Part shown: positions 5,656 to 54,300 of the stretch, piece by piece
Layout: every line of letters starts with the position of its first letter
How positions within the stretch are numbered: position 1 is the stretch's first letter
DNA from: Candidatus Moraniibacteriota bacterium
GTDB taxonomy: Bacteria > Patescibacteriota > Minisyncoccia > Moranbacterales > UBA1568
Reading direction: 5' to 3'
DNA length: 64,000 bases
NCBI GenBank assembly: GCA_016182385.1
Contig: JACPGV010000002.1
Location: forward strand, 189,190 to 253,189
The notes under the pieces: generated by a model
Told to the model about the DNA's origin: nothing
What the model saw: the letters and a program-made list of their open reading frames with translations, nothing else
The model's database searches: none
Position numbers and translations under genes: made by a program

Positions 5656-5927
5656 AAGTAAAATAAAACCCCTCGTTCGAAGTGTTCCTCGAACGGGGGA
5701 AAGCGATTGAGTCTCTTCCGACGGAATGAACTTCAGCAGCGTCCGGCGCTAACATTCCGCAAATCTTTCCCAGAGAAATCTTTTGATGCTGGAAAGACGA
5801 GAGACCTAGCCTTTTGGCTTACCCCTATAGAGGAGAAGAGAGGGGAAGGCGGTTCGCGGGGACCGTCTTTTGATGCGGCGCCGGGAGTAAGGCAGTTGTA
5901 TCAAAAAACAAGAGTGACGTCAATGTG

Positions 5928-7705: not shown

Positions 7706-8212
7706 TTAAATATGCAGTAATTTTTCCAAAGTGTCAATGAGCCCGGGACTATGCTCTTCTTCCGGTATAAATTGCGAGAGGACATCGCGTAATTCGTTGT
7801 TATCAATAGTGGGAACAGGGATATGCGCGTGGGAAAAAAGTTTTCCTTCAGTATGAAGACTGAGAATATTTTGGAATGGCGGTTCGGTATAAATAAAGAA
7901 TGATTGCACGGATTCGAAAGAGTAGAGCTCATTGCCGGCGACGACGCCTTTTGGGGTAACAGAAAAACGTATGATTCGTGGTTCTCGATACAAAGAAAGA
8001 TAGCCGATAATACCGATGAGAATAAAAGTAATGGCCATTAAGGGGCTATTTGTGTAGAGTGCCCAGACAACAATAAGAACGAGGAGTACGGTGACGATGA
8101 CGCGTGATCGCGGGCCGAGCTCAAGGGGCTCGTGTTCTGGGGCCTCCCATTGAAGTAAAATAGTGTTGGGGGAAAGAGGGGAGGTGCTTTGTTGTTCAAA
8201 AGAATCTTGCAT
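7706..8212 (-). CDS. Hypothetical membrane protein with two TM helices, possibly a bacterial PH-like domain.
   Basis: 168 aa. Hydrophobic segments VIVTVLLVLIVVWALY and AITFILIGIIGYLSLY followed by a soluble domain. Confidence 0.45.
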   Translation of the reverse strand: MQDSFEQQSTSPLSPNTILLQWEAPEHEPLELGPRSRVIVTVLLVLIVVWALYTNSPLMAITFILIGIIGYLSLYREPRIIRFSVTPKGVVAGNELYSFESVQSFFIYTEPPFQNILSLHTEGKLFSHAHIPVPTIDNNELRDVLSQFIPEEEHSPGLIDTLEKLLHI

Positions 8213-8333: not shown

Positions 8334-8423
8334 GGAGGAGTGGCCGAGTGGTTGAAGGCAACAGTCTTGAAAACTGTCGTACCCGAAAGGGTATCGTGAG
8401 TTCGAATCTCACCTCCTCCGCCA
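8334..8423 (+). tRNA. tRNA-Ser (anticodon TGA), type II with long variable arm and encoded CCA.
   Basis: GGAGGAG acceptor, GCC/GGC D-stem, anticodon loop CTTGAAA, variable arm CGTACCCGAAAGGGTATC, T-arm GTGAG-TTCGAAT-CTCAC, CTCCTCC-G-CCA. Confidence 0.85.
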
Positions 8424-8496
8424 AGTTTTACATTCAGCGAAATTGAAAGATGTTGCCTCGGCGCAAAGCGCCTCGGCATGGTATTTTTCCGCAATT

Positions 8497-8660
8497 TTAA
8501 AGGCATTTTTGAAATCCAAAAACAAAGTGCGGTCGGCAATGCGGAAGTTCGAACCAATCTTTTTGAGAAAATCCCGAAAGGATTCGGGAATTTTTGGCGG
8601 GAACGCGTTTGTGTCGGCGCGAAGCTCGGTGAGGGAATGGTGTTTTAACCACAGTGTCTT
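8497..8660 (+). repeat. Dispersed repeat family R1, copy 1. It contains imperfect palindromes and T-arm-like GTTCGAAC motifs, and its 3' end carries the 33-bp islet direct repeat.
   Basis: 8524-8620 aligns with the reverse complement of 15158-15290. Core GGATTCGGGAATTtTTGGCGGGAAcGCgTTTGTGTCGGCGC is about 90% identical. ORFs 8409..8672(-) and 8443..8700(+) lie within the repeat. Confidence 0.6.
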
Positions 8661-8735
8661 AACCACAGACAATGGACAGAACGCAATTTTTAGTGTATAA
8701 TTTATTAGATTTTCAACTGTTAAAATCTAATAAAA

Positions 8736-9347
8736 ATGTCATTTGAAGGTTATAAAAAAGATTCCAGGGACATACATTTGAATCCTAAAGAAGGCAAAGA
8801 ACAGGCCGGGACTCTGGAATCATTGTTGGAAAAGTACAAGGACCAAAGAGTATTGGTTCTTGCGCCACCGAGTGTTGGAAAAAGTACCATCTTGCAACAT
8901 ATCAAAGATGGCGTTGACTTAGATGTAGTATTTGATGATATGCCAGAAGAGTTTAAAAGACACGTTTTACATCATGAGTGGCCATTCATGTTTGTTGATG
9001 GTGATAGGAAGGCCATAAAATACACTGAAAAGGAATTTGACCCAAATAATATTGAGCACCAAGATTATTTAAGAGAGACGACTGAATTGCTGACGGATTA
9101 TGTTCAAAGCAAGATGAATATCGAAGCGGGACATCCAGGCTTTGGAAGTACTCTTGTAGATTCTGATGTGGTGATATATTTAAAAATTTCTGAAGAGGAG
9201 CTTGAAAAAAGGATTGAGTCTCGTAATAAGAATACTCACAGACTCGTACAGATTGAAAGAGTTAAGGCGATAAAGAAAAATTTAGAAGTAGATTTAGTTA
9301 GGTTTAAATCTGAAGGTGGAGTAGTGGAAGAGATAACTATTGATTAA
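8736..9347 (+). CDS. P-loop NTPase / putative nucleotide or polynucleotide kinase (203 aa).
   Basis: Walker A-like LAPPSVGKST. AT-rich gene inside the putative islet. Immediately followed by a HAD phosphatase gene. Confidence 0.55.
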   Translation: MSFEGYKKDSRDIHLNPKEGKEQAGTLESLLEKYKDQRVLVLAPPSVGKSTILQHIKDGVDLDVVFDDMPEEFKRHVLHHEWPFMFVDGDRKAIKYTEKEFDPNNIEHQDYLRETTELLTDYVQSKMNIEAGHPGFGSTLVDSDVVIYLKISEEELEKRIESRNKNTHRLVQIERVKAIKKNLEVDLVRFKSEGGVVEEITID

Positions 9348-9909
9348 CCATATAACTGAGAAAAATATGAAAATGAAGAAAAAAATAGTTTTCTTAGACG
9401 GAGATGGAACGCTTTGGTATCCAAGTGCTACAAAGCGAACACAAAAACCTCACTGGATTTATCATGACCCCGAAACTAAAGATAACTATCTTGAACATTT
9501 AGAATTAACCCCAAAGACTAAGGAAACTCTAGAATATTTGAATAAGCAAGGTTTACTCCTTGTAGTTCTTTCAGCGAATCCCTATGCAGAAGATATTGCT
9601 ATTAAAGAAATCAAAGAAAGACTAGATCATTTTCAGTTGATTAGTCTTTTCTATACGTATAGATCTTCAGAGGGCAGCGATCCAAATGGTAAAGCATCAA
9701 TTATTCTGGAAATATTATCATCTTTAGGACTCGAGAAGCAGGACGCGCTGATGGTCGGAGATAGTTATTTTTATGATTACCTCGCAGCTAAAGATATTGG
9801 CGTGGATGCTCTCTTTGTAGAGAATAGTGTTTCAAAAATGCCAGATGAAATCCCTCAAGATTTACAGTCAATTAAAGAGATTCACGAATTAGTTGATATA
9901 CTTACCTGA
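9340..9909 (+). CDS. HAD-superfamily phosphatase (DxDGT class, PNK 3'-phosphatase-like).
   Basis: Motif I FLDGDGTLW, motif IV MVGDSYFYDY, intervening motif II/III-like S/K. 189 aa. Confidence 0.7.
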   Translation: MINHITEKNMKMKKKIVFLDGDGTLWYPSATKRTQKPHWIYHDPETKDNYLEHLELTPKTKETLEYLNKQGLLLVVLSANPYAEDIAIKEIKERLDHFQLISLFYTYRSSEGSDPNGKASIILEILSSLGLEKQDALMVGDSYFYDYLAAKDIGVDALFVENSVSKMPDEIPQDLQSIKEIHELVDILT

Positions 9910-9918
9910 TTTCTTCTT

Positions 9919-12900
9919 ATGGATGTGGATGAGAAATCTGTAAGAACAAAAATCTCGAAGTTCAATCAAGAAAGCAACGTGAGCGAATTACTCAGTTTAC
10001 TGAGTGTCACTGATTCTGACTTGGAGAAAATAATATCCTTTATCAATAAATTTATTGATAAAGGATATTTGAAATCGTTTACATTTCTTCCTCTTAAAGT
10101 TACCGATGAATATTTAGTATTTATTAATTCCTCAAATGAGGTTGAGGTGATTGATACGGATACTGTAAGCTTGAGAAAGGCGCTGAATCATATTAAGGCA
10201 TACGATAATAGCAATTTTCAATCTGAAACTGCTAGTTTAGTTTTGCGAAGCGTCCTTCTTGCCGTATCAAAATCAGAGCTCAAGTCTTATGATGTATTTA
10301 CCAGATTTAATACGGAGGTCTCGGATAAGAATACACTGAGACAACTATTGAAGGATGAAAATAATTGGATCGCTGAAAGAAGAGAAATTCAGAAAAATCT
10401 TACAGATTATTTTTATACAAGTGTAGAATCTCTATCACGAAAGATTGCTCATTCAAAACGGATAGAGAAAGGTCTCTACTGTGTTAGGGGACCTATAGCC
10501 TCAGGAAAGTCCTCATTTATTAAGAGCTTGTTAGATCAAAATATAAAGGACATTGAAGGTTTTGATGGTGTACTAAATACTGACGCTGTAAAAAGAAGGT
10601 TTGTATTAAACGCTTCAAATTACACAGGACAGATGCTTTCTGGTTATGTATTTCATGAGGAAGCATCCATTATCGGTGAAAAACTACTTGAAAAAGTTAA
10701 AGAGGCTAATTTTATTTACGTCCTCGATAGGAGAATGCAATCGGTCGATGACCTTGATGAACTTCTGCTTGATGCAGAACGAAGAAACTTGCCAGTTAAT
10801 ATTTTTGATCTAAAAGTTGATTTTATAACATCCGCATTGAGAGTTCTAGAGAGAACAGGTGTGTACCCAAGTGATCCTACACCTGATTTTTTATCACTAT
10901 ACAAAAGTTATAAAAATATAGAGGATTGCAGATTGATTTTCTTAGAGAAATCTTTAGCTTCAAAATTTGTAAAAAATTATTCCACAGTATCCGTTAATAC
11001 TAATGGTGACCCAGTAATCCTCAATCTTAAAAAGAACTATATAGTTAATAAGCAGAACTTAGTTCATGAATCAGAAGCTCGGTATATGTCGAGTATTGAA
11101 AGTTTGAAAAACCTCATTCTTTCAAATGATAAGACGCTTCAAATTACTCTAGACGAGCATTCGCGAAAGGGGCACATTCCTCGGTTATCAAGAAATGAGT
11201 ATCAAGAGGGTCTATTGCGAAATATTAAATGTACAAGTAGGACATTTGATGGAGAGTTAGATGTTTCGGCATCTAAAGATAAGCATAAGATTCTCAACAC
11301 ATCTATTTCAAAGAATGATCTGATAAAGATCACGAAAAATAATATAACAAAAGCTTTTGATTTTGTATATGATAATAAAAACATACCTATATTATCGCCA
11401 CAAGTGCTTAAAGACTTTATTGATCAAATTGCAAGAATTGTAAATCAAGAGATTATAAATGATGAAAAGCTAATAGTAAGAAGCGGAAGTAATTCCCATA
11501 AGTATTTTTATGTAGATACAAAATACGTAGAAAAGTTTTATAAATCATTTGTAAGTCAGTTGTACTATAAGCTTAGTAATCCAGCAGTTAACCCCATAGA
11601 TTTAGCGGCGTGGATTGAATGGAATATAGATTTTTGTGGACATATTTTTAGTGATGGTTGCGGGAGAATTTCAAAAATTTTGAGTACGTGGCTACTGACG
11701 AGATATAATGTTACTTTGCCAAATTATGAAAATGGACAAGATGGATTTGCAACTATTCGAGAATCATACAGAAAGAGATTCGCTATTAAATCGATTATAA
11801 ATCTTCAAATTCCCACTAATACAAAAAGCTTTTACGCTTTCGCAACCTACTATAAGAGATTGTTTGAGCCTAAGAAGACTTATAAGATTCTTGCTTCAGG
11901 CGGGTTAATTTATAATTCAGCGGGTCAGTTCTTAATACTTCAGACTAGTAAGGGTAAGGACTGCGGGAAGTGGGTTGTTCCTGGAGGTAAGCTGGATATC
12001 AATGAAGCTCCAATGGAAGCGTTTGTTCGGGAGGTCTTTGAGGAAACTGGACTTGAGATCAACAATATTCGTTTATTAGGAGTACGTGATTACACAGCAA
12101 AAAGTGGAAACCATTATCATTTTTATGACTATACCTCTTCTGTAATTGATGAAAAAAGAATAAAGATTAACGAGGAGTCCCTCGCTTTTAAGTGGATTAC
12201 GAAAGATCAGATATTAAACTTTACTTTTACGGATTCAATCACAAATTTTATTCATAAATATTTTATTTTTGAATATCTAGATATTTATCAAAAAGTAGTT
12301 AAGATTCCAGATCATAACTTCGACACACCTCATTTAATCGACCATACGATGACAACTTCGCTAGAGAATTATATCAAAAATAAACTACCGATAGATTTGA
12401 TTGATAGTAATCTAAGGATGATAGATAGTTTTGAAATACATGGTATATATCCAGATCTCAATATTTTGAATGAACTGAATCTAGACTTTACTATCACCGA
12501 GGTGCTTCATTCGAGTAAGTTAAAAAAAGACAATAGCAATAGCTTGAGACCGATGTTTTTATTAGGTGAGAGAAATTCAAAGAAGATTTTGATCTGTTGT
12601 GTAACTCCAGGGAGAGACTTACTCATACACTATGCTTCTATGATTAAGTATCATTTAAGAAATTTTCAGATTTCGATAAATGTCTATGCTTATCCTTTGG
12701 CTGAAAAAGATATCGATAAATGGACTGGTCTAGACGAAAAAATGATTATCAAGAATGATATTGTTATTCTTGGCTACAGCACTTTTTTTAAAGATCACTT
12801 TGAAAAAGATTCTGATTTTTCGGTATTAAGTACGTACCAAAACAAGTTTTATTCAGCTACTAGATTTATTTCAAAAAACGGAAAGGTAATAAATTGTCTG

Positions 12901-13455
12901 GAGGCAAACTATGGTCATTGGGGTGATATTAGTGATTTTCTAGCGCAGAAAGTATGTCAGTTGAAAGCACAGGAGATTTTGCATGTAGGAAAAGTGGGTA
13001 CCTTAAAATCTGTAAGTGAAGTATATAAAAGAATATACATACCAAAGTCATTTGTTATAGGTAGAAGAAATGAAATTATGAGCTTAGGCTTAAAGTTAAG
13101 TAATTCTATGGAGTATATAAAAGAGCATTCTTCTTTAGCTCATATTTCTGTAACTACAACAATGGAAGAAACCTTTACTCAGCGTGAACATTTTTCTAAG
13201 CAAAAAGTTCATACGATAGATATCGAATCATCAAAAATTGCTCGTGCAGTTGCTCTATATAATATTACTAACAAGACTAAGATAAAATTTGGAGCAATAC
13301 ATTTCTCTTCAGATTATTTGAAAAAATTAGAGGAGTCAGAGCAGAATGTAGGTATAGATTTATCAACCAATAGAGAGGATTTGAAATATAGAAAGCAAAA
13401 TATACTTAATGAAATCTTTTATATTATTAAGAGGCATATCATTGATAATGGGTAG
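9919..13455 (+). CDS. Multidomain 1178-aa protein: N-terminal unknown domain, zeta-toxin/PNK-like P-loop kinase, Fic/Doc-like domain, Nudix hydrolase domain, and a C-terminal ~380-aa domain possibly nucleosidase-like.
   Basis: Walker A GPIASGKSS (~aa 181). Fic-like HIFSDGCGRISK (~aa 573), close to the Fic core consensus HxFx(D/E)GNGRxxR. Nudix box GGKLDINEAPMEAFVREVFEETGLE (~aa 690). C-terminal ...ILHVGKVGTL... weakly PNP/MTAN-like. About 33% GC. Confidence 0.7.
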   Translation: MDVDEKSVRTKISKFNQESNVSELLSLLSVTDSDLEKIISFINKFIDKGYLKSFTFLPLKVTDEYLVFINSSNEVEVIDTDTVSLRKALNHIKAYDNSNFQSETASLVLRSVLLAVSKSELKSYDVFTRFNTEVSDKNTLRQLLKDENNWIAERREIQKNLTDYFYTSVESLSRKIAHSKRIEKGLYCVRGPIASGKSSFIKSLLDQNIKDIEGFDGVLNTDAVKRRFVLNASNYTGQMLSGYVFHEEASIIGEKLLEKVKEANFIYVLDRRMQSVDDLDELLLDAERRNLPVNIFDLKVDFITSALRVLERTGVYPSDPTPDFLSLYKSYKNIEDCRLIFLEKSLASKFVKNYSTVSVNTNGDPVILNLKKNYIVNKQNLVHESEARYMSSIESLKNLILSNDKTLQITLDEHSRKGHIPRLSRNEYQEGLLRNIKCTSRTFDGELDVSASKDKHKILNTSISKNDLIKITKNNITKAFDFVYDNKNIPILSPQVLKDFIDQIARIVNQEIINDEKLIVRSGSNSHKYFYVDTKYVEKFYKSFVSQLYYKLSNPAVNPIDLAAWIEWNIDFCGHIFSDGCGRISKILSTWLLTRYNVTLPNYENGQDGFATIRESYRKRFAIKSIINLQIPTNTKSFYAFATYYKRLFEPKKTYKILASGGLIYNSAGQFLILQTSKGKDCGKWVVPGGKLDINEAPMEAFVREVFEETGLEINNIRLLGVRDYTAKSGNHYHFYDYTSSVIDEKRIKINEESLAFKWITKDQILNFTFTDSITNFIHKYFIFEYLDIYQKVVKIPDHNFDTPHLIDHTMTTSLENYIKNKLPIDLIDSNLRMIDSFEIHGIYPDLNILNELNLDFTITEVLHSSKLKKDNSNSLRPMFLLGERNSKKILICCVTPGRDLLIHYASMIKYHLRNFQISINVYAYPLAEKDIDKWTGLDEKMIIKNDIVILGYSTFFKDHFEKDSDFSVLSTYQNKFYSATRFISKNGKVINCLEANYGHWGDISDFLAQKVCQLKAQEILHVGKVGTLKSVSEVYKRIYIPKSFVIGRRNEIMSLGLKLSNSMEYIKEHSSLAHISVTTTMEETFTQREHFSKQKVHTIDIESSKIARAVALYNITNKTKIKFGAIHFSSDYLKKLEESEQNVGIDLSTNREDLKYRKQNILNEIFYIIKRHIIDNG

Positions 13456-13477
13456 TTTCTAAGCCTCGCTTTTATGC

Positions 13478-13500
13478 AGATTTTTGAGACACTAGCGTGT
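13478..13500 (+). terminator. Possible hairpin terminator after the 1178-aa ORF.
   Basis: AGACAC-tagc-GTGTCT stem-loop followed by TATTTCCTT. A second hairpin ATGAGACA...TGTCTCAT lies at 13515-13542. Confidence 0.3.
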
Positions 13501-13675
13501 CTTATTTCCTTAATATGAGACATAGCCTGTATTGTGTCTCATTTGTCTCAAAAGCCTGACCCGGACACCTCAATTTGCTATACTCCAAGTACCTCCAAGA
13601 AACCCCTCAACAGCCCTATACTTCAAAGTTCTAGACCGATGTAGCCCGCAATTTTTCGAAAAGGGTTTCAGAACC

Positions 13676-13720
13676 AAAAATATGGTCGGCGTGAAGCTCG
13701 GTGAGGGAATGTGGTTTGAG
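13676..13720 (+). repeat. Partial R1 repeat copy carrying the second 33-bp direct repeat, the putative right boundary of the islet.
   Basis: 13685-13717 GTCGGCGtGAAGCTCGGTGAGGGAATGtgGTTT versus 8613-8646 GTCGGCGcGAAGCTCGGTGAGGGAATGgtGTTTT. Confidence 0.55.
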
Positions 13721-14003
13721 CTATTTCTAAAGTACGCTGTCTTTATAGGAAACCAGCCAATCAAATGTTTCCGACGGGTAATTCTCCTTTCGTTTACTGG
13801 CCGATGGGAAATTCTTTCTTTCTGTTTTTTCGCAGAATGGCCACTTGCTTTTTTTGTCGTTCCGTGCTATGATGGTTATGTTGTAAGTTTTTCTCTCTGG
13901 AGTAACTCGACATAAGGCTCAGGTTGCCAAATCTCGAATCTTCGTCAAGTAGGACCAGAAAAGGGAAGGTCACCTTACACAGTAATCAAGTGAGTAGTTC
14001 GAT

Positions 14004-14330
14004 ATGGCAACCAAATTGTATGTCGGCGGCGTTTCCTACGGTACAACCGAGGACGGTTTGCGCGATGCATTCGCACAGGCTGGTAACGTTGCTTCTGCCA
14101 AAATCATCATCGACAAAATGACTGGTCGCTCACGCGGCTTTGCTTTTGTTGAGATGGCTACCGAAGAAGAAGCCAAAAAGGCTATCGATCTTTGGAATGG
14201 TAAGGAGCTCGATGGACGCACGCTTACTGTCAACGAAGCTCGTCCTATGGAAGAGCGCGCCCCTCGCACTGGTGGATTTCGCGGCAATCGCGATTTCAAC
14301 GGTGGGAATCAAGGCGATAACCGTTGGTAA
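14004..14330 (+). CDS. RRM-type glycine-rich RNA-binding protein.
   Basis: RNP-2 LYVGGV and RNP-1 RGFAFVEM. C-terminal RGG/G-rich tail. 108 aa. Confidence 0.85.
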   Translation: MATKLYVGGVSYGTTEDGLRDAFAQAGNVASAKIIIDKMTGRSRGFAFVEMATEEEAKKAIDLWNGKELDGRTLTVNEARPMEERAPRTGGFRGNRDFNGGNQGDNRW

Positions 14331-14341
14331 GTAGAAAGGAC

Positions 14342-14368
14342 ACCCCGAGTAATCGGGGTGTTTTTTTA
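14342..14368 (+). terminator. Rho-independent terminator.
   Basis: ACCCCGAGTAATCGGGGTG hairpin followed by TTTTTTT. Confidence 0.7.
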
Positions 14369-14516
14369 TTTCCAAAACTTGACAAAAGAAAAAATATTTT
14401 TCTCAAAAGGTGTATACTTGTTGGTAGAAGAGAATCTTTTTTTGCACTTTGATATACGGCAGGGGAAAATGGTCGATACTGTCGCGTTCCTTCATTTTAT
14501 TTTTTATAAATAGAGT

Positions 14517-14888
14517 ATGGAAAAAAATATCATTACCATTCTTGGAGTCGTGTTTCTTGTTGTCGGTGTTCTTGGATTTTTCAATGATCCGTTGTTGGGT
14601 GTTTTTGACGTTGATACGGTTCATAATATCATTCATCTTCTCTCCGGAGCGCTCGCGCTTGTTGTTGTTGGTATGGGAGCGGAAGCTTTGCGCATGTACG
14701 CCAAAATCTTCGGGGCGGTGTATGGTGTGGTGGGAGCAGTCGGCTTCCTTACGTCGGGTGATATGATTTTGGGTCTTTTTATGTCCAATACGGCTGGAGA
14801 TGTCTTGCATCTCGCGTTGGCAGTTGTTTTGTTGTATGTCGGATTCGGTCGACCGTCACATCGTGATCCGATAGTGACTTCTATGTAG
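14517..14888 (+). CDS. Small integral membrane protein (DUF4383-like, 4 TM).
   Basis: 123 aa, four hydrophobic helices, Gly-rich. Confidence 0.55.
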   Translation: MEKNIITILGVVFLVVGVLGFFNDPLLGVFDVDTVHNIIHLLSGALALVVVGMGAEALRMYAKIFGAVYGVVGAVGFLTSGDMILGLFMSNTAGDVLHLALAVVLLYVGFGRPSHRDPIVTSM

Positions 14889-15026
14889 TTGATTCTTGGG
14901 GGAGAATCGGTGATATTTTTGGAAGAATTTGGTTTTGTTTTTCTTGTTTTCACAAGGAATTATTTTGGCTTGATTCAAAAGAAAAAAATTGCTAGGCTAA
15001 AGAATATCAAATCATGAAAAGAATAA

Positions 15027-15117
15027 GGAAAGGTGGCCGAGCTGGCTGAAGGCACCACACTGCTAACGTGGCAGGGGATAAAACCCCTCGAGGGTTCGAA
15101 TCCCTCCCTTTCCGCCA
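15027..15117 (+). tRNA. tRNA-Ser (anticodon GCT), type II with encoded CCA.
   Basis: GGAAAGG acceptor, GCC/GGC D-stem, anticodon stem CCACA/CGTGG with loop CTGCTAA, long variable arm AGGGGATAAAACCCCTC, T-arm GAGGG-TTCGAAT-CCCTC, CCTTTCC-G-CCA. Confidence 0.8.
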
Positions 15118-15300
15118 AAATTGAAAATCGGAATCGGAAGCCGAAATGGGGTCGGCGCGAAGCGCCGACACAAAAGCATTCCCGCCAAGAATTCCCGAAT
15201 CCAAAAGGTTTTTCCACGCTCCGCGTGGCTCAAAAAAGACGGTTCGATCCTTAATTTGAAAGTTCGAACCGACTTTTTTGAACAAATGAAGTTTTGCTTC
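15112..15300 (-). repeat. tRNA-Ser(GCT) 3'-flank repeat (att-like, 15112-15149) followed by an inverted copy of repeat family R1 (15158-15290).
   Basis: 15112-15149 recurs at 19472-19509 (33/38 identical). 15158-15290 is the reverse complement of 8524-8620. Internal imperfect palindrome AAAAAGTCGGTTCGAAC...GATCGAACCGTCTTTTTT. Confidence 0.6.
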
Positions 15301-15587
15301 ATTTGTTCCCTCGTTTGCCAATTCCATATTGTATTTCAAAAACTTTTCCGTAAGTTCGAACCGATTATTCGCTTTTTGCTCAAAAGCCGATAATTTCTCT
15401 TTGAGAAGCTGTTTTTCGTTCATTAACTTATTTTTCATATCTCGATATTCTTCAAGCGACAAGGCGTTTTCGAGATAAGCGCTATGATGTAAGCTCCTAT
15501 CTGGACAAGGAGGGCTTTGAGAAAATGAATAGTAAGCTGAAGTAGTCTGAAATTGGAGAGAAGTCCTCTTTATGCTAAAATGGAACT

Positions 15588-17426
15588 ATGTTTGAAAAAC
15601 ACCCCCTCCACATCAAAAACCCAGAACTGCAGAAATCTGCCGATGTTCAGCATGCCGTTGTTCGTGACCAGCGCCACACCGGCGAGAAAATTCCAAATGA
15701 TCCTAAAGATCGTATTGAGGCATATACTGACCGATTGGAAAATATCTTTCTCAACCCTGATAGCCGAGTACGAGAGCGCAATATTGACCTTCTTCGTCCC
15801 AAGATTTACGACAGCCTCATCATCAAGCGAGGGAATTTTCCCGATTCCTACTTTGAACTCCAAAAAAGAGTGGCCAGAGAACAGGGTCACGGTGACATTG
15901 AAATTTCTCAAGAGATGCGAGAGCAGATGATTGATACGGCTATCGCTGATCAAAGGCACTCTCTTGATGCTTGGATTGACTACCTGTCATCCGAAGATGC
16001 TGTCTATCCAGCCTGGTTTAAGTACTACGCGTGGAATCAAATTACCAAGCTTTCCCAGTTTGATAAAGAGCGCGGCGAATTCAAGAAACGCACCGAAAGC
16101 ACGGTCGCTCCTTTTCCAGATATCTACCGCGAACCACTAGCGCAAATGGCCGACCTGTACGAGCGAGTCAAGCAAGATAATAAGGATCCAGAAGCTAGAG
16201 CTGAATTTGATAAAAAATTCCCTAATCTCTACGCTGAACTCATTGTTAAATCCTTAGAGGCCGGAGTGGGGGGTGGGGAAACCATAGAGGGGGCCTGGGT
16301 AAAGTTTGAACAAGGGGAGGAAGGCGCCGCGGAGAAACTTTTTCAGTCGCTTGATGGCCGAGGGACGGGCTGGTGTACCGCTGGGTATTCAACCGCCCAA
16401 ACCCAAATTGAATCCGGAGATTTCTATGTCTATTACACGAATGATAAAGACGGAAACCCAATACAACCAAGACTCGCCATTCGCATGAATGGTGATACTC
16501 AAATCGGAGAAGTAAGAGGAGTGCTCCCGCAACAAAATGTAGAGCCTTTGATGCAAGAAGTATTAGAGGAAAAACTCCAAGCTTTTGGGAAAGAGGCTGA
16601 TGCGTATCATAAGAGGAGTAGCGATATGAAAATGCTGACCGTTCTGGAAAACAAAAAAAAGCAGGGAATACCTTTTGCTAAAGAAGATCTCACTTTCCTA
16701 TACGAAATCAATTCCACCATTGAAGGCTTTGGCTATCAGGAAGATCCACGCATCGCTGAATTACGGGCTGATCGCAATACCGAAAGAGACATGTTAGTAA
16801 TCTTTGATTGTACCCAGGCAGATATTGCCAGAACCCCAAGTGAAATTCGGCCTACAACCAAAGCCTATGTGGGTCAATTAGAGCCAGGCATCTTCCAAAA
16901 ACTCCCAGCTACTCTAGAACACGTCTATACTGCTTTCCCAGAAGGAAAAGTACGAAGGATAGAATCCAAAGTGGGAGGCAAATCTGCTGGTACTCTTCAA
17001 GAAGAATTGGAAGCTGCTCAAATCAATATTGGGGGCTATGCTGAGAGTATGCTCAAAAACAAAAAGGAATTTATTGCTACTCCAGAATTAGAAGAGATGA
17101 CCCTGATTCGTCTTACGGTAGCTGACCTTGGTTTTAAGTCCTCTGCTACTACTGATCAAATTTACAAACGAGCTGAAGAATTAGGACTTGAACTCTGTCC
17201 AAGCGATGTCGGTCCCACGCTCCGTTTACAATACCAAAATCAACCTCTTGGAGAATGGCTGTATATAGGAATGAAACAAATTGCTGACTCTGACGGCAAT
17301 CCCGGCGTTTTCATGCTGGCGCGCGACGGTGGCGGTTTGTGGTTGGACAGCAGTTGGGCGAGGCCTAGCAGCGGGTGGAATCCGGACGGCGGGTTCGTGT
17401 TCCGTCTCCGCAAATCTGAATCTTAG
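15588..17426 (+). CDS. DGR target (variable) protein, 612 aa. C-terminal ~45 aa is encoded by the VR (C-type-lectin/FGE-like ligand-binding fold inferred). N-terminal ~560 aa of unknown function.
   Basis: 3' end 17283-17410 is an adenine-mismatched copy of the TR. C-terminal motif ...GWNPDGGFVFRLR is typical of DGR variable proteins. Confidence 0.8.
   Translation: MFEKHPLHIKNPELQKSADVQHAVVRDQRHTGEKIPNDPKDRIEAYTDRLENIFLNPDSRVRERNIDLLRPKIYDSLIIKRGNFPDSYFELQKRVAREQGHGDIEISQEMREQMIDTAIADQRHSLDAWIDYLSSEDAVYPAWFKYYAWNQITKLSQFDKERGEFKKRTESTVAPFPDIYREPLAQMADLYERVKQDNKDPEARAEFDKKFPNLYAELIVKSLEAGVGGGETIEGAWVKFEQGEEGAAEKLFQSLDGRGTGWCTAGYSTAQTQIESGDFYVYYTNDKDGNPIQPRLAIRMNGDTQIGEVRGVLPQQNVEPLMQEVLEEKLQAFGKEADAYHKRSSDMKMLTVLENKKKQGIPFAKEDLTFLYEINSTIEGFGYQEDPRIAELRADRNTERDMLVIFDCTQADIARTPSEIRPTTKAYVGQLEPGIFQKLPATLEHVYTAFPEGKVRRIESKVGGKSAGTLQEELEAAQINIGGYAESMLKNKKEFIATPELEEMTLIRLTVADLGFKSSATTDQIYKRAEELGLELCPSDVGPTLRLQYQNQPLGEWLYIGMKQIADSDGNPGVFMLARDGGGLWLDSSWARPSSGWNPDGGFVFRLRKSES
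17283..17410 (+). repeat. DGR variable repeat (VR).
   Basis: 128 bp, about 83% identical to the TR. All ~22 mismatches fall at TR adenines. Shared 3' GC-rich IMH-like end CGTGTTCCGTCTCCG. Confidence 0.85.
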
Positions 17427-17769
17427 AAACTTTGTTTCTTTGTCTTAATTTTTCTTTTGACCCTTGGACTCTTTGATACTTTGGACTTTAGTCTTTTAGC
17501 GGCGTAGCCGCTTGGCGCGATTTTTTTGCTATACTGATTGCAAGCTGGTTACATTGAACGGTTACGGCTTTTCGAGACCAGCCCGGCTCATGTGGATTGA
17601 GAGCGTGGACGGCTACGGTTTTCCACGGAGGATACGCATGCAGTCAACAAAAAAGAAACACTTGGTGCGACACACTGGCTGATTTTCGATCAGAGTTAAA
17701 ATACAGCACGACCTCTGGCATTTCATGCGCTTAGGTCGGCAGTGATCTAGATGGCGTGCCGCACAAAAA

Positions 17770-17897
17770 GCTGACTCTGACGGCAATCCCAACGTTTTCA
17801 AGCTGGAACGCAACGATGACGGTTTGTGGTTGAACAACAATTGGGCGAAGCCTAACAACGAGTGGAATCCGAACAACAAGTTCGTGTTCCGTCTCCG
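17770..17897 (+). repeat. DGR template repeat (TR).
   Basis: Contains 10 AAC (Asn) codons in the target frame. The corresponding VR codons are GGC/GAC/AGC/CGC etc. Confidence 0.85.
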
Positions 17898-17917
17898 AAA
17901 CTGCTTTCTTTCCGCAG

Positions 17918-18241
17918 CTATGTGTTGCGGTTTTTCTTTTCAGGGTTGTCGAGATTCTTCTTCCAGCCACCGAACATGCGGCCAATCTCTTCAAGTTTTG
18001 AGGAAACATTCTCACAGTGGGCGTTTGAAATGAGCTTGCCTTCCCAGGCAACTGAAACGAGAAACTTCAGCGTATCAAGAAGGAGGATACATTCAGAAAT
18101 CTTTTCAGCCTTTTTCTCTTTTTCGGTAAAGTAGGCAGCGTAGGAAAGTTCGAGTAAATCAAGAAACCTATTTTCAATGCGAGAGCCTATCGTATATCTC
18201 GCCCCTTTAGAAATATGCGGAACAATATTCACCCAAATCAA
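17918..18241 (-). CDS. Avd-like accessory variability determinant (four-helix-bundle, 23S rRNA IVS protein family). Antisense to TR and RT.
   Basis: 107 aa. C-terminal ...KFLVSVAWEGKLISNAHCENVSSKLEEIGRMFGGWKKNL resembles the IVS/Avd consensus (...EIGKML.GLIK.L). Basic. Confidence 0.5.
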   Translation of the reverse strand: MIWVNIVPHISKGARYTIGSRIENRFLDLLELSYAAYFTEKEKKAEKISECILLLDTLKFLVSVAWEGKLISNAHCENVSSKLEEIGRMFGGWKKNLDNPEKKNRNT

Positions 18242-18267
18242 ATAGCCCTCTTTGATACGAGCGAGGA

Positions 18268-19326
18268 TTGTGGCCTTCGTATTTCCGAGCGAAGCTCGGG
18301 GGGGGGGGTGAAAACAGGTGCAGTCATATCTACCATGATATCATTTCTGTGGATAACTTGCTCTCGGCCTGGCGCGAGTTTCTCAAAGATAAACGCCGTC
18401 GTAAGGATATTGAACGGTTTGCGCTTCACCTGACCGATAATGTCCTTTCGCTTCACAAGGATCTTACCGACAAAACCTATAAGCATGGCTCGTATCGAGC
18501 TTTTCGGATTAACGACCCGAAGCCACGAGATATTCATAAGGCATCGGTTCGAGACCGACTTCTGCACCATGCGATCTATCGGGTCTTGTATCCCTACTTC
18601 GATCCCAAGTTTATTTTCGACTCCTATTCCTGCCGCCGTGCTAAAGGCACACACCGGGCTATCAATCGCTTTCGGGACTATGCTCGCAAGGTTTCACAAA
18701 ATCATACACGCACCGCTTGGGTTCTCAAGTGTGACATTAGGAAGTTTTTTGCTAACATCGATCACAAAATTCTGGAAGATATCCTGAGGCACCGCATCGG
18801 AGATGGAGAGGTAGTATCGCTTCTGGGCGAAGTAGTAGGAAGCTTTCATACGAAAGACAATCCCGCTGTCGGGCTGCCCCTTGGCAACCTTACGAGCCAG
18901 CTTCTGGTGAACATCTATATGAATGAGTTCGATCACTTTGTGAAGCGGGAATTGAAAGCCGCCTACTACATTAGGTATGCAGATGACTTCGTAATCTTGC
19001 ATGAAGACAAGGAGTATTTGGAAAAGCTTTTGCCCAAGATAGCAGCGTATCTGGCAGCCCGGCTTAGGCTGTCGCTCCACCCGAACAAGGTATTCATAAA
19101 GACGATTGCCTCGGGCGTTGATTTCTTAGGCTGGGTGCATTTTCCGTATCATCGGGTACCAAGAACCTCCACCAAAAAAAGAATGTTCAGAAACCTCAAT
19201 CAGAAGCAGACGGAAGCCACCGTGGCCTCATATCTCGGCCTCCTGAGCCATGGGAACACCTATGGCCTAGCTGAGAAGGTAAAGAGAAGTCTTCCCGAAA
19301 ATTCGAGCGAAAAGGCTACCTTTTGA
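18268..19326 (+). CDS. DGR reverse transcriptase.
   Basis: RT domains with YADD (IRYADDFVIL) and DGR-specific motif LPLGNLTSQ, which replaces QGxxxSP. About 350 aa, no maturase/endonuclease domain. Start uncertain: TTG at 18268 or GTG at 18349. Confidence 0.85.
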   Translation: MWPSYFRAKLGGGGENRCSHIYHDIISVDNLLSAWREFLKDKRRRKDIERFALHLTDNVLSLHKDLTDKTYKHGSYRAFRINDPKPRDIHKASVRDRLLHHAIYRVLYPYFDPKFIFDSYSCRRAKGTHRAINRFRDYARKVSQNHTRTAWVLKCDIRKFFANIDHKILEDILRHRIGDGEVVSLLGEVVGSFHTKDNPAVGLPLGNLTSQLLVNIYMNEFDHFVKRELKAAYYIRYADDFVILHEDKEYLEKLLPKIAAYLAARLRLSLHPNKVFIKTIASGVDFLGWVHFPYHRVPRTSTKKRMFRNLNQKQTEATVASYLGLLSHGNTYGLAEKVKRSLPENSSEKATF

Positions 19327-51376: not shown

Positions 51377-54300
51377 CTATTTTACGGATTCTACTCCTTC
51401 TATCATTCGTATTTGCGTCAGAGATTCTTCGGTCGGGGCGATTGAAAATGTGGTCTCGATCGTCGCGCCCTGGATTTTTACGGCAACTTTTTTTGATCCG
51501 GCAGGGAAGGTCTTGAGAAGATGTGAGAGGTGTTCGATAATTTTTGGTGGAGCGTCATTTTTGATTATAAGAATAAGACGATCATTTGAGGGATTCTGAG
51601 GGGGCGTAGGAGGGGAAGTTGGACGAGAGAGTTTGGCACGGGTGGCTTCAGCACGGGCAAATTGTTGAACGTCATTATTTGAGATGCGACGGACGCCTTC
51701 AGCAATAGAACGCACTTGGCCGTCTTTGTGCGAAATACGTGCATCGATAATGACGACTTCGTCTTCGACCCATGATTCTCCCGTGCGTTCGGCAGTTTTT
51801 CCAAAAACAAGAAGTTCGGTACGACCAGTCATATCTTCGAGACCAACGAAATACATCGTGCTCCCATTTTTGGTGAGAACTTTTCGAACAGCGGTGATAA
51901 CGCCTCCAACATTGATACGGCTACCGTCTGGTTTTTTTTCGATATCGCTCAGCGGTGTTATTGTTTTATTAAAGTATTCTTGGTAGTCAGAAACGGGATG
52001 GTCGCTCACGTAAAGACCGAGGAGTTCTTTTTCCCAGTCGAGACGCATTTTTTTGGTGGCGGGGAGAGCGTGGGAAAGTTGGATTGTACTTTCGGGCATT
52101 GCCATTTCACCGAAGAGGCTATTTTGGTGAGTATCGGCGAGTGTTTTGAGATTTTTTGCGTGACGCAAAATGTCATCGAGACTGACGACAAGTCTGTTTC
52201 GTTCATCGAAATCTTCGAGAGCGCCTACTTTAATGAGTGCTTCGAGTGAACGTTTATTTAAATCTTTGGTTTGGACACGTTCGACGAAATTTTCGATTGT
52301 TTTAAATGTCCCATCTTTTTTACGTGCCTTGACGATTTCTTCCGCGCAGATTGAGCCGACGTTTTTGATGGCGCTTAGTCCGAAGCGGATTCTTTCTTTT
52401 TTATCATCGCCTACAATAACGGCAAAATCTTCAAAACTTTCGTTTACAGACGGCGGAAGAACTTCAAGGCCGATTTCACGAGCTTCGCGAACTTCGATGG
52501 CGACGCGGTCGGTGTCGTGTTGGTCGCTCGTGAGAAGGGCGGCCATGAATTCGGCTGGGTAGTGTGCTTTGAGGTAAGCCGTTTGGTAACCAATGAGCGC
52601 GTAACAAGCGGCATGAGAACGATTGAAACCGTAGCCGGCGAATGGTTCGATGAACGCGAAGATTTTTTCACCGATAGTTTTTCCTACACCCGTTTTTACA
52701 CATCCTTCAATGAATTTTTCACGTTGTTCGGCGACAAGTTCTTTAATTTTTTTTCCGACTGCTTTACGAAGCACGTCTGCTTCACCGAGGGAAAATCCGG
52801 CAAGATCACGCGCGATTTGCATGAGTTGTTCTTGATAAACAGCGACGCCGTAAGTGTTCTTGAGAATCGGTTCGAGTTTTGGGTGAAGGTATTTGACTTG
52901 TTTGGTGCCGTGTTTGCCGCCGATGAAATCAGGAATGTATTCCATCGGACCCGGTCGGTAGAGGGCGACCATCGCGATAATGTCTTCGAAGACGGAAGGT
53001 TTGAGTTGTTTCAGGTAACGTTTCATTCCAGTTGATTCAAGTTGAAAAACACCGGTAGTGTGGGCATCTTGCAGGAGTCTGTAGGTCATTTCATCATCAA
53101 GCGGGAGTCGACTCATGATATCGGCGACAGTAGCCGTTTCGGGATTTAATTTTAATTTTTCCAGAAGCGGTGGCAATTTTCCCAAGGCGCGAACAATACG
53201 GAGGGTGTTTTGAATGATAGTAAGGTTTTTGAGTCCCAAGAAATCCATTTTAAGAAGACCGATTTTTTCTACGGCGTTGGCTTTTGTGCTGGCGGCGTAT
53301 TGAGTAACAACACCTTCACGACTTCCCGCGACGCGTTGGAGCGGAGTATATTCAGTGACGGGATCTTTGGTAATGACGACACCGCAGGCGTGCATCGAGG
53401 CATGACGAGCCAAACCCTCGATAGTTTGAGCGGCATCGATTAGGCGTTTGGCGTCAGGGTTTTTTTCATAGTGTTGTTTGAATTCCGGTACTTCCTCGAG
53501 CGCTTTCTTGATCGAAGTGAACATGGGGATCATTTTGGCGGTTTGATCGCAAAGCGGAAGAGGAATACCAAGCGCGCGACCGACGTCACGAATGGCTCCG
53601 CGGGCGGCCATCGTTCCAAACGTGATGATTTGAGCGACGTGATCGTTACCGTATTTTTGTCTGACGTATTCCAGTACTGCTTCACGGCGGTCATCAGCGA
53701 AATCCATATCGACATCGGGCATGGAGATACGCTCAGGATTGAGGAATCGTTCAAAGAGGAGATCGTATGCGATCGGATCGAGATCGGTAATACCAGTAAG
53801 GTAGGCGACAAATGATCCGGCAGCCGAACCACGACCGGGTCCGACAATGACGCCGTTTTGTTTTGCCCAATTGACGAAGTCTTGCACGATCAAGAAGTAA
53901 GAAGCAAAGCCCGTTTTTTCAATGACGGACAATTCATAACGAAGACGCTCTTTTTGTTCATTGGTGGGCATCTGTCCGGGGAAACGCTTGGTAAGTCCCA
54001 CGACACAGAGCTCATGAAGGTATTCGTCGGCGGTTTTCTCGTTGGGAAGAGGGAAGGCGGGAAGGTGATTCTCACCCATTTGGATTGTCAGTGTGCAGGC
54101 TTGGGCGATTTTTTGCGTGTTTTCGATGGCCTCAGGAACATCTTTGAAAATTGTTTTCATCTCTTCCGCTGAGCGGAGGGAAAGGTCGAGTCCTTTCATG
54201 CTGAATCGTTCAGTGTCGGTCACTTTTTTGTTATCACGAATACAGAGGAGAATGTCTTGTATTTCGGCATCTTCTTTTTTGAGGTAGTGAACATCGACCG

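Follow-up and report, generated by a model that had tools for sequence, protein, structure and literature searches.

Genes and features of the locus

The window, by which we mean the whole stretch of 64,000 nucleotides that was analysed, comes from a Candidatus Moranbacteria genome and carries three consecutive genes, for a small P-loop kinase, a HAD-superfamily phosphatase and a giant protein of four enzyme domains. The features of the locus are:

8334-8423, + strand: tRNA-Ser(tga), called by ARAGORN, directly upstream of the island
8613-8645, no strand: 33-nt direct repeat, left copy; the two copies enclose the low-GC island
8673-8701, + strand: best sigma-70-like promoter match, TGGACA-17-TATAAT, 11/12, a consensus match only, 35 nt upstream of the kinase ATG
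8736-9347, + strand: small P-loop kinase, 203 aa (ORF listing, profile and structure comparisons)
8859-8888, + strand: its Walker A motif LAPPSVGKST, kinase aa 42-51 (sequence)
9367-9909, + strand: HAD-superfamily phosphatase, 180 aa, minimal cap (ORF listing, profiles)
9391-9417, + strand: HAD motif I, FLDGDGTLW, with the nucleophile Asp and the Asp two residues on (sequence; invariant in 37 homologues)
9919-13455, + strand: giant protein, 1178 aa, four enzyme domains (ORF listing, profiles)
10291-11118, + strand: AvrRxo1/zeta-toxin-type P-loop kinase domain, aa 125-400 (NF041405 3e-26; PDB 4z8q 9e-8)
11356-11868, + strand: Fic-like domain, aa about 480-650, with the variant motif HIFSDGCGRISK at 11641-11676 (Pfam, PDB profile matches)
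11893-12246, + strand: Nudix hydrolase domain, aa 659-776; its Nudix box, GGKLDINEAPMEAFVREVFEETGL, is intact (PF00293 7.6e-18; PDB Nudix matches)
12301-13452, + strand: nucleoside phosphorylase-I (PNP/UDP)-fold domain, aa 795-1178 (AF2 model and Foldseek)
13485-13504, + strand: terminator-like hairpin and T-run, 30 nt past the giant stop
13685-13717, no strand: right copy of the 33-nt direct repeat

The initial annotation had placed separate genes for a P-loop kinase and a DxDGT HAD protein ahead of the giant gene, and both open reading frames are as it described them, with motifs invariant in 22-37 homologues. The kinase gene ends with the stop codon at 9345-9347. The HAD reading frame is open from a TTG at 9340; because homologues measure 178-180 aa, the ATG at 9367 is the likely start. 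Spacers of 19 nt between kinase stop and HAD start and 9 nt between HAD stop and giant start, together with the promoter-like site and the terminator-like hairpin, indicate that the three genes are read as one operon.

The two repeat copies are identical at 30 of 33 positions and bound a low-GC segment within which the HAD gene falls; the 26-nt core of the repeat occurs exactly twice in the window (0 of 100 shuffles). Comparable flanking direct repeats were not found at four homologous loci (L001, L005, L018 and L020), and the core is absent from all other loci. The repeat is thus peculiar to the window and cannot be generalised as an attachment site. A 1176-aa open reading frame at 51377-54907 was considered as a second copy of the giant gene and rejected.

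Conservation, distribution and mobility of the operon

The order kinase-HAD-giant holds over 21 distinct loci of Patescibacteria, whose pairwise nucleotide identity is at most 85.5%, and this synteny bears out the earlier suggestion of a nucleotide-processing module that travels together. A check of co-occurrence across genomes, proposed at the same time, placed the HAD gene directly upstream of the giant gene at 17 of 17 distinct loci and found the small kinase at 15 of 16. Across 15-17 loci, each with its own flanks, the gene order is kept with spacers of 9-30 nt, even where identity of the giant protein has fallen to 43%. GC content lies below that of the flanks at every locus compared (15/15). 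Large serine recombinase genes adjoin the operon at L005 and L019, and TraG/TrwB-like and Replic_Relax genes do so at L011 and L013. The three-gene operon is horizontally mobile and confined to Patescibacteria. Other neighbours include SIR2_2 and DUF87 genes (SIR2-HerA) next to the operon in L005, a Schlafen AlbA_2 gene at L018, and genes of nucleotide metabolism (Nuc_deoxyrib_tr, thymidylate kinase-like, NAD synthase, Nudix, MazG) near several loci, with nucleotide or NAD genes close by at L011, L012, L020 and L031. No RNA/DNA ligase, RtcB, Hen1, anticodon nuclease or other nuclease lies beside the genes in the annotated neighbourhoods of any locus.

Homologue searches returned 45 sequences for the small kinase, 260 for the HAD and 29 for the giant protein. 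The kinase family is very small, with 81 cluster representatives among 1.84 billion proteins, and occurs in only 8 of 185,579 species representatives. The giant gene was never found without the HAD gene, whereas the HAD gene stands by itself in L008-L010 and is joined by the kinase gene, with no giant gene, in L023. Lone HADs of other Patescibacteria genomes are highly similar (63-67% identity), and a neighbour-joining tree intermingles stand-alone HADs with those of the operon. Relative to the window copy, identity runs from 66 to 91% for the HAD, 47 to 87% for the kinase and 43 to 76% for the giant, the HAD being the slowest-evolving of the three. No match to the HAD was found by tblastn among 50,697 phage records. 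At L031 and L029 separate proteins of 670, 136 and 399 aa replace the giant, the breaks falling exactly at domain borders; at L025 and L030 the reading frame of the tblastn match shifts within the PNP-fold region of the giant.

Affinities of the three proteins

In the small kinase, G48, K49, T51, D61, D63, D144, R159, R163 and R169 are invariant across 22-23 homologues. Pfam gives only dNK (23.8 against a cut-off of 27) and AAA_18 (24.3 against 29.4), both sub-threshold at about 4e-5, and PDB sequence searches, with the single sequence and with a profile, gave nothing significant. At aa 80-98 a beta-hairpin insert stands where the NMP-binding region usually lies. The part that matches dNK, adenylate-kinase and UMP-CMP-kinase models is the C-terminal LID segment, DSDVVIYLKISEEELEKRIESRN, which also draws a partial, weak match (6e-6) to the PADLOC model VakA, a name for which a literature search gave no usable result. 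Foldseek searches with the kinase model returned archaeal adenylate kinase, CMP and UMP kinases, deoxynucleoside kinases and the Clostridium thermocellum Pnkp, all at TM 0.35-0.45 and none favoured, with the Pnkp kinase at rank 13 (TM 0.40/0.46); a viral structure library gave the same mixture, with a putative phage Pnk at rank 7. The phrog_415 family "polynucleotide kinase" is a weak match (E 1.3e-3), and hhalign against T4 Pnk aligned 42 columns around the P-loop only, at a probability of 53%, pairing the kinase ExxK segment with the D35xxR38 segment of T4 Pnk. A paralogous relationship to the AvrRxo1-like domain of the giant was also considered and rejected, since the P-loop alone aligns (probability 11%). 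Overall, the small kinase is a divergent member of the P-loop kinases, has a LID of nucleoside/nucleotide-kinase type and is predicted to be active on small molecules.

Of the kinase's distant relatives, 25 of 45 match AAA_28, 27 match AAA_18 and nine match dNK. Pfam AAA_28 includes the nicotinamide-riboside kinase domain of NadR. Single distant relatives are fused to Ham1 or to isochorismatase, the fold of nicotinamidases.

The HAD carries all four motifs of its superfamily, I (DxDxT), II (S/T), III (K) and IV (GDxxxD), as D11/D13/T15, S69, K109 and G131-D132...D137, invariant in 37 homologues. Pfam HAD_2 (PF13419) matches at 7e-13, with 49.5 bits against a cut-off of 23.8, and Hydrolase at 2.5e-11. 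Further matches, all weak, are TIGR01662, TIGR02254 and TIGR01685, of which TIGR01662 (HAD-IIIA, the subfamily containing the PNKP phosphatases) aligns over its full length at 1.2e-8 and scores 35.2 bits, below its cut-off of 44.6. The PADLOC "Hydrolase" model gives a partial, weak match (1e-4). The top matches of the HAD profile to PDB sequences are 3ib6, 4ygq and 2om6; neither PNKP nor T4 Pnk appears among the PDB matches at E<=1. Against the T4 Pnk phosphatase (aa 157-214) hhalign gives the profile a probability of 12.8% over 58 columns; against E. coli GmhB the figure is 67% over 121 columns, spanning motifs I-IV. With GmhB and the other small-molecule phosphatases of HAD-IIIA and HAD-IA type (YjjG-type nucleotidases, MDP-1) the protein shares its four motifs and short length; unlike them, it falls under every curated family cut-off and has an insert of its own between motifs I and II, WYPxxTxRxxKPHWxY, invariant in and unique to these HADs. 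We predict an active minimal-cap, Mg-dependent phosphomonoesterase acting on small molecules.

The giant protein had been described as a kinase-Fic-Nudix protein. That description is correct, the second domain being Fic-like, but it was incomplete, for a fourth domain with the PNP fold occupies aa 795-1178. The AvrRxo1/XopAJ kinase core keeps Walker A, GPIASGKSS, opposite NTATGKT of 4z8q, and a catalytic Asp in LNTD opposite VNPD, the equivalent of D193, which with T167 makes up the catalytic residues of AvrRxo1 (PMC5491322); the NF041405 match, despite its E value, reaches 92 bits against a cut-off of 300. In the Fic-like region, Pfam PF02661 gives E=0.07 (14.4 bits against a cut-off of 24), and 12 of 12 PDB profile matches are Fic proteins, but at E 0.4-1.1; the motif is a variant, invariant in homologues, of the canonical HxFx(D/E)GNGRxxR. 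The Nudix box GX5EX7REUXEEXGU is intact, and PF00293 scores 65.2 bits against 21.1; PADLOC PDC-S07 is a partial, weak match to this domain. No sensor or regulatory domain is recognisable in the giant.

The fourth domain, which has no Pfam or PDB match by sequence, is the best-conserved part of the giant (NCLEANYGHWG, TTMEETF, TIDIESSK, HFSSDY). Its AF2 model (pLDDT 75, with lower confidence at model aa 240-300) has 358 Foldseek matches in the PDB at E<=1e-3, with TM to target of 0.5-0.6, and the best 50 of these 358 are all PNP, uridine phosphorylase, AMP nucleosidase or futalosine hydrolase. Judged by this model, it is a previously unrecognised PNP-fold domain. Cap17 and Detocs DtcC, which are PNP-fold ATP nucleosidases, likewise place a nucleoside-phosphorylase fold in a conflict or mobile-element context (bioRxiv 10.1101/2023.01.24.525353), but the domain found here has no sequence match to the PADLOC models and no CD-NTase or two-component relay partner.

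The literature search found no description of an AvrRxo1 + Nudix + Fic + PNP architecture. The nearest relatives are the AvrRxo1-Arc1 systems, of the zeta/epsilon toxin-antitoxin type, to which the giant is linked by its NF041405 and 4z8q matches and its retained Walker A and catalytic Asp, and the long AvrRxo1 homologues of Parcubacteria and Ca. Saccharimonas, in which a central AvrRxo1 kinase is likewise followed by Fic/Doc, a combination noted in Patescibacteria (PMC4938570). The latter are 742-893 aa long with an Arc1-like ORF next to them (Triplett et al. 2016, PMC4938570). In contrast, the kinase here lies inside a four-domain protein, with the additional Nudix and PNP-fold domains, is preceded by genes for two enzymes, and has no Arc1: no Arc1-like or conserved short ORF follows the giant gene, the downstream genes varying among the loci examined, and inspection by eye of the first 125 aa of the giant showed no Arc1-like motif KExFD...YExxYY.

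Candidate functions of the cassette

The initial annotation had also proposed that the kinase and HAD mimic the two halves of a split polynucleotide kinase-phosphatase and hint at RNA repair; the small kinase would phosphorylate 5'-OH ends and the HAD would strip 3'-phosphates of RNA/DNA, as T4 Pnk and mammalian PNKP do. Those enzymes, too, have a P-loop kinase and a DxDGT HAD phosphatase encoded together, and a few details fit: the short, cap-poor build of the HAD, resembling HAD-IIIA, the weak phrog_415 match, the positions of the bacterial Pnkp and the putative phage Pnk in the structural rankings, the pairing of ExxK with D35xxR38, and the recurrence of kinase-HAD pairs in distant relatives. 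The proposal was not supported by the comparison with Pnkp, PNKP and GmhB. The sub-threshold TIGR01662 score, the hhalign probabilities and the PDB matches draw the HAD nearer to GmhB than to PNKP, and NMP and deoxynucleoside kinases match the kinase as well as or better than Pnk does, its LID being of dNK/NMPK type. T4 Pnk and PNKP are bifunctional 5'-kinases and HAD 3'-phosphatases, whereas the proteins here are separate, in another order, show no specific sequence or fold affinity to them and have neither a ligase nor a ribotoxin in their surroundings; the domains conserved alongside them are all small-molecule nucleotide enzymes. There is also a cautionary precedent in AvrRxo1, whose structure at first led to the name polynucleotide kinase, until the enzyme proved to phosphorylate NAD but not the dinucleotide UpA (PMC5087710). 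End healing is therefore very improbable, and the locus very probably encodes a small-molecule nucleotide cassette instead; once again, a P-loop kinase plus a DxDGT HAD has proved an insufficient signature from which to infer polynucleotide end-healing.

Our best explanation, to which we give somewhat less than an even chance, is a conflict cassette directed at nucleotides or NAD, where the HAD, with the kinase, would be a metabolite-level safeguard replacing the Arc1 antitoxin. The characterised AvrRxo1 enzyme phosphorylates the adenosine 3'-OH of NAD. As an NAD 3'-kinase AvrRxo1 is toxic, and Arc1 restrains it (PMC5491322, PMC5087710, PMC4938570); ATP nucleosidases with the PNP fold are established as immune effectors (bioRxiv 10.1101/2023.01.24.525353). 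The kinase and HAD genes, the first two cistrons of the mobile operon, would then serve the third. The giant, which unites in one polypeptide a kinase of AvrRxo1 type with a Fic-like domain, a Nudix pyrophosphohydrolase and a PNP-fold, N-ribosyl-cleaving domain, would phosphorylate, split and de-base adenine nucleotides or NAD-type dinucleotides, not RNA/DNA ends, and its activity may be of the toxin or abortive-infection type, borne by the mobile element. The HAD, aided by the small kinase, would remove an aberrant phosphate or recycle products, and would thereby stand in for the Arc1 protein antitoxin of simpler AvrRxo1 homologues. The occurrence of the HAD without the giant, but never of the giant without the HAD, is the pattern expected of orphan immunity genes, and the slow evolution of the HAD is consistent with an enzyme whose target is an unchanging metabolite and not a toxin surface with which it co-evolves. 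The layout of the genes, the integrity of their catalytic motifs, the folds of the domains, the strict synteny and the marks of mobility are observed; the substrates, the toxicity and the safeguard role are inferred, and we hold the specific pairing of toxin with enzymatic safeguard in some doubt. Six intact enzymes and a giant split at domain borders suggest a multi-step pathway no less than a toxin, and the HAD, common as a lone gene, may be no more than a housekeeping phosphatase of Patescibacteria. Further observations counter to a conflict role are the distant kinase-HAD pairs with their different HADs, the lack of a recognisable sensor or regulatory domain in the giant, the confinement of the flanking repeat to the window, the nucleotide-metabolism genes near several loci, and the PADLOC results, which hold partial, weak matches only and no significant match to any defence-system protein model.

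The main rival, somewhat unlikely in our judgement, is constructive salvage, in which the six enzymes would rebuild or interconvert nucleotides or NAD from breakdown products. In one possible order, Nudix cleavage of ADP-ribose or a dinucleotide would come first, and the PNP-fold domain would then link a base to a ribose phosphate. The mononucleotide would be the work of the small kinase, followed by transfer of AMP by Fic and removal of a phosphate by the HAD; the setting would be an auxotrophic Patescibacterium host or a mobile-element counter-measure against NAD-depleting defences. Such a pathway accords with the intactness of every catalytic motif, with the fusion of the enzymes and their separation at domain borders in one lineage, with the AAA_28, AAA_18 and dNK matches and the isochorismatase and Ham1 fusions of distant kinase relatives, with kinase-HAD pairs beside housekeeping genes, with the four loci near nucleotide or NAD genes and with the SIR2-HerA neighbour in L005. 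Phage NAD-rebuilding operons with kinases, one with a phosphatase, are also known: NARP1-AP (Adpp phosphatase) and NARP3 (NadR-like kinase) are small mobile-element operons built around a nucleotide kinase, sometimes with a phosphatase as well, and process NAD-derived metabolites, but their folds differ (Adpp is a Macro domain, Adps is PRPP-synthetase-like) and the likeness is conceptual only. However, every characterised AvrRxo1/zeta kinase is a toxin with a dead-end product (PMC5087710, PMC5491322), eight species representatives are far too few for core metabolism, low GC and variable locations speak against it, no NMN adenylyltransferase or transporter is recognisable, and a co-dependent pathway would not predict a HAD that occurs without the giant but never the reverse. 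The lone HADs of other Patescibacteria genomes could also mean that a housekeeping HAD is merely adjacent to the kinase and giant genes with no functional link, but the synteny data already contradict this, order and short spacers being kept amid differing flanks as the giant diverges, and the window HAD lies within the repeat-bounded low-GC segment; we give it almost no credence.

Two concrete designs can be drawn from the conflict and rebuilding readings, and even taken together they are unlikely to capture the system: a NAD/adenine-nucleotide conflict module of new design guarded by a metabolite-repairing HAD and kinase or, alternatively, an unknown NAD-rebuilding pathway on Patescibacteria mobile elements. 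In the repair design, the HAD would take off an aberrant ribose phosphate, with the nucleoside/nucleotide kinase alongside and no binding antitoxin. In the rebuilding one, a kinase might, for example, make ADP-ribose-1''-phosphate, which the PNP-fold domain would condense with nicotinamide.

If the conflict reading is true, the cassette would be a toxin/effector system whose safeguard acts on the metabolite, not on the toxin, and would extend the NAD/ATP-centred arms race, so far one of phage and bacterium, to mobile elements of ultra-small episymbiotic bacteria. The locus also brings to light a tiny P-loop kinase family, a divergent PNP-fold domain invisible to sequence searches, and a recurrent kinase-HAD gene pair, each a new subject for study. 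The HADs paired with distant relatives of the small kinase are other HADs, and one such pair, with no giant protein nearby, sits between a VIT1 gene and a malic-enzyme gene.

A three-gene operon in a low-GC segment

The window derives from a metagenome-assembled Candidatus Moranbacteria genome and has a chromosomal setting, with DnaE, MiaA and a Xer-type recombinase encoded. Both small genes that the initial annotation placed ahead of a giant protein gene, for a P-loop kinase and a HAD phosphatase, are present as ORFs.

Features of the operon and its borders (window positions)
8613-8645 and 13685-13717: 33-nt direct repeat, two copies flanking the low-GC segment
8673-8701: promoter-like sequence, the region's best match (11/12 positions)
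8736-9347, same strand as the HAD: small P-loop kinase ORF, 203 aa, Walker A LAPPSVGKST
9340-9909, same strand as the kinase: HAD open reading, motif I FLDGDGTLW
9919-13455: giant ORF, 1178 aa, beginning nine bases past the HAD ORF
13485-13504: hairpin, then a T-run

Because of the promoter-like match ahead, the hairpin and T-run behind and the nine-base spacing between HAD and giant, the three genes are read from the sequence as a single operon. The true start of the HAD is probably the ATG at 9367, since its homologues measure 178-180 aa. GC content is 33% in the operon segment versus 44% in the remaining window, and a tRNA-Ser(tga) gene ends about 300 nt ahead of the low-GC segment. The window has exactly two occurrences of the repeat's 26-nt core; 100 shuffles gave none.

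Domains of the giant protein (residues)
125-400: AvrRxo1/XopAJ zeta-toxin-type kinase (NF041405, 3e-26; PDB 4z8q, 9e-8)
~480-650: Fic-like domain with an invariant variant motif, HIFSDGCGRISK (Pfam Fic, E 0.07)
659-776: canonical Nudix domain, box intact
795-1178: nucleoside phosphorylase-I (PNP) fold domain (AF2 model, pLDDT 75, and Foldseek)

The make-up of the giant as kinase, Fic and Nudix, proposed initially, stands for all three domains, weakly for the Fic-like one, but omits the C-terminal PNP-fold domain. The kinase domain keeps Walker A as well as an Asp at the position of catalytic D193, and all twelve PDB profile matches of the Fic-like domain are Fic proteins, albeit at E 0.4-1.1. 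Residues 795-1178 are the best-conserved portion of the giant and have no sequence match in Pfam or PDB; Foldseek returned 358 matches to their model at E<=1e-3, the best 50 of which are all purine/uridine phosphorylases, AMP nucleosidase or futalosine hydrolase. We take TIDIESSK...HFSSDY in the giant to correspond to the E. coli PNP signature EMEAA...VSDH. At two of the homologous loci, L025 (~7902-7909) and L030 (~5855-5858), the giant's tblastn match shifts frame within this domain, about 50 residues of which are additionally missing in L030; these changes could be pseudogenisation or assembly error.

Long AvrRxo1-Fic/Doc homologues, each followed by an ORF like the antitoxin gene Arc1, have been described in Parcubacteria and Saccharimonas (Triplett et al. 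2016, PMC4938570). That account includes neither the extension by Nudix and PNP-fold domains nor the enzyme pair upstream, and the window operon, unlike those homologues, has no Arc1-like ORF.

The small enzymes and the polynucleotide kinase-phosphatase reading

All family-model matches of the small kinase are sub-threshold: AAA_18 spans its full length, and the LID segment, DSDVVIYLKISEEELEKRIESRN, is the part matched by dNK, adenylate-kinase and UMP-CMP-kinase models. In its AF2 model, which is confident (pLDDT 83.8), residues 80-98 form a beta-hairpin inserted into a P-loop kinase core. Foldseek matches of this model in PDB are archaeal adenylate kinases, CMP, UMP and deoxynucleoside kinases, and the Pnkp kinase of Clostridium thermocellum, each at TM 0.35-0.45 and E of about 1e-3 to 1e-2; a viral structure library likewise gave mixed, undifferentiated kinases. 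The family is tiny: when 1.84 billion cluster representatives were searched with its profile, 81 proteins came up at E<=1e-3, some ten of them full-length, and among 185,579 species representatives just 8 carry it. In distant relatives, with a length of about 155 aa, the hairpin is missing; among 45 scanned, Pfam matches are to AAA_18 (27), AAA_28 (25) and otherwise AAA_33 or dNK.

The HAD protein matches Pfam HAD_2 (7e-13) and Hydrolase (2.5e-11). All four HAD motifs are invariant across 37 homologues, and the same is true of WYPxxTxRxxKPHWxY, an unusual insert lying between motif I and motif II; given the length of 178-180 aa, a large helical cap will not fit. The nearest NCBIfam model, HAD-IIIA, scores below its cut-off (35.2 vs 44.6 bits), and matches of comparable strength are to YjjG-type nucleotidases, YqeG, phosphoglycolate phosphatase and MDP-1.

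Kinase and HAD had been likened to a split polynucleotide kinase-phosphatase, an enzyme that heals RNA or DNA ends. T4 pseT, taken from the T4 genome record, and E. coli gmhB served as comparators. Against the T4 Pnk phosphatase, the HAD profile aligns at motifs I-II alone (58 columns, probability 12.8%); against the sugar-phosphate phosphatase GmhB, all four motifs align (121 columns, probability 67%). Matches among PDB sequences are 3ib6, 4ygq, 2om6 and other generic HADs, with neither PNKP nor T4 Pnk at E<=1. The likeness in motif class to the T4 enzyme therefore holds at superfamily level. The kinase profile aligns with T4 Pnk only in the surroundings of the P-loop (42 columns, probability 53%), and no ligase, RtcB, Hen1 or anticodon nuclease was found in any examined locus. 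AvrRxo1 offers a precedent, once called a polynucleotide kinase from its structure and later found to phosphorylate NAD and NAAD but not the dinucleotide UpA (PMC5087710). These comparisons, the loci free of repair partners and the AvrRxo1 precedent together leave membership of the Pnk/PNKP family without support, and healing of polynucleotide ends by the pair is very improbable; that the two are instead small-molecule enzymes is well supported. GmhB outranks Pnk for the HAD, as the initial annotation expected if its reading were wrong, whereas the lack of conserved co-occurrence expected alongside was not seen: co-occurrence is conserved.

Co-occurrence and candidate function

Twenty-one distinct loci were collected, with pairwise nucleotide identity of at most 85.5%. 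The HAD gene immediately precedes the giant in 17/17 loci with DNA available upstream of the giant, the small kinase lies ahead of the HAD in 15 of 16, and gene order is kept even with giants as little as 43% identical. In loci L031 (7001-10612) and L029 (1-1984) the giant is three genes cut exactly at domain borders: kinase-Fic (670 aa), Nudix (136 aa) and PNP-like (399 aa). L031 has a second HAD-family protein, of 257 aa, in place of the small kinase, with genes for NAD synthase and HD_4 just upstream.

The two small genes also occur apart from the giant. Locus L023 (8974-10089) has kinase and HAD without it, and may hold a remnant or orphan pair; an unrelated 500-aa ORF follows on the opposite strand. 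All three distant kinase relatives with readable context (P0201, P0203 and P0205; E 3e-30 to 2e-18 against the kinase profile) adjoin a HAD gene, the genes overlapping or abutting (L032, 200-1512; L033, 52-958; L034, 522-1909), with the HAD upstream and 246-248 aa long in two cases and downstream in one. One such pair sits between VIT1 and malic-enzyme genes. This points to a gene pair conserved more widely than the operon, so the operon took up a couple older than itself. Solitary HADs, 63-67% identical, are found in other Patescibacteria and, in a neighbour-joining tree, are intermingled with those of operons. One of them (67% identity; L008, 7001-11247) is followed directly by genes for a DUF8128-DUF87-TrwB-like ATPase and for Replic_Relax, and conjugation genes of these kinds also stand beside the complete operon of L013.

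That the operon is conserved, horizontally mobile and made up of six nucleotide-directed catalytic domains is well supported. As to its role, we tentatively favour an effector with a safeguard: the giant would poison and degrade nucleotides or NAD, and the HAD, aided by the kinase, would protect at the metabolite level in Arc1's stead. In the loci examined the giant never lacks the HAD, while the HAD often occurs where the giant is missing, and the HAD is also the best conserved of the three genes; every characterised AvrRxo1/zeta kinase is toxic (PMC5087710, PMC5491322), and ATP nucleosidases with a PNP fold are among known immune effectors (bioRxiv 10.1101/2023.01.24.525353). Against this stand the housekeeping contexts of some kinase-HAD pairs, the lack of a recognisable sensor domain in the giant, PADLOC matches that are weak only, and a multi-enzyme layout, fused in some loci and split in others, that looks like a pathway. 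The same layout favours the main rival, a constructive route for NAD or nucleotide salvage or rebuilding, which we consider rather unlikely; its kinship with the phage NAD reconstitution pathways (NARP) is one of concept only.

All components come from known superfamilies, and the fusion of AvrRxo1 with Fic in Patescibacteria is already reported. The six-activity operon, the PNP-fold domain of the giant, the tiny kinase family and the strict HAD partnership without Arc1 did not come up in the literature searched.

Mobility and genomic surroundings

Flanking genes differ at every locus, and GC content is lower than in the flanks in 15/15 loci. With gene order kept amid such differing flanks, the suggestion that the three genes travel together as a nucleotide-processing module is borne out. 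In L005 as well as L019, large serine recombinases adjoin the operon; TraG/TrwB-like ATPase genes occur in L011, together with a resolvase, and in L013, together with a Replic_Relax gene and an IS1595 transposase. The L005 surroundings look like a mobile or defence island, with the recombinase and an HTH_17 gene upstream and a SIR2-HerA-type pair, SIR2_2 and HerA-like DUF87, immediately downstream (12812-15686). L018 has a Schlafen AlbA_2 gene, and in L001 and L020 the operon is placed between core genes.

Some operon-bearing assemblies among L017-L020 are titled "uncultured Bdellovibrionales" or "Gammaproteobacteria", and the partial kinase P0162 is labelled Caldilineaceae. Everything else indicates Patescibacteria, so these names may reflect wrong labels, errors in binning or horizontal transfer.

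Two similar minus-strand ORFs in the window, at 8409-8672 and 15007-15462, each lie just 3' of a tRNA-Ser gene (8334-8423 and 15027-15117). They are related in sequence (...GSNF(R/Q)I(A/K)DRT(L/V)F...), the DNA of both regions aligns too, and the left copy of the 33-nt repeat falls within the first; they may be integrase or recombinase remnants at tRNA attachment sites. A complete diversity-generating retroelement occupies 15588-19326.

Components of the retroelement (window positions)
15588-17426: target ORF, 612 aa, without Pfam match; variable repeat at 17276-17413
17763-17900: template repeat
18268-19326: reverse transcriptase (RVT_1, 5.6e-23)

All mismatches between its repeats sit on template adenines.
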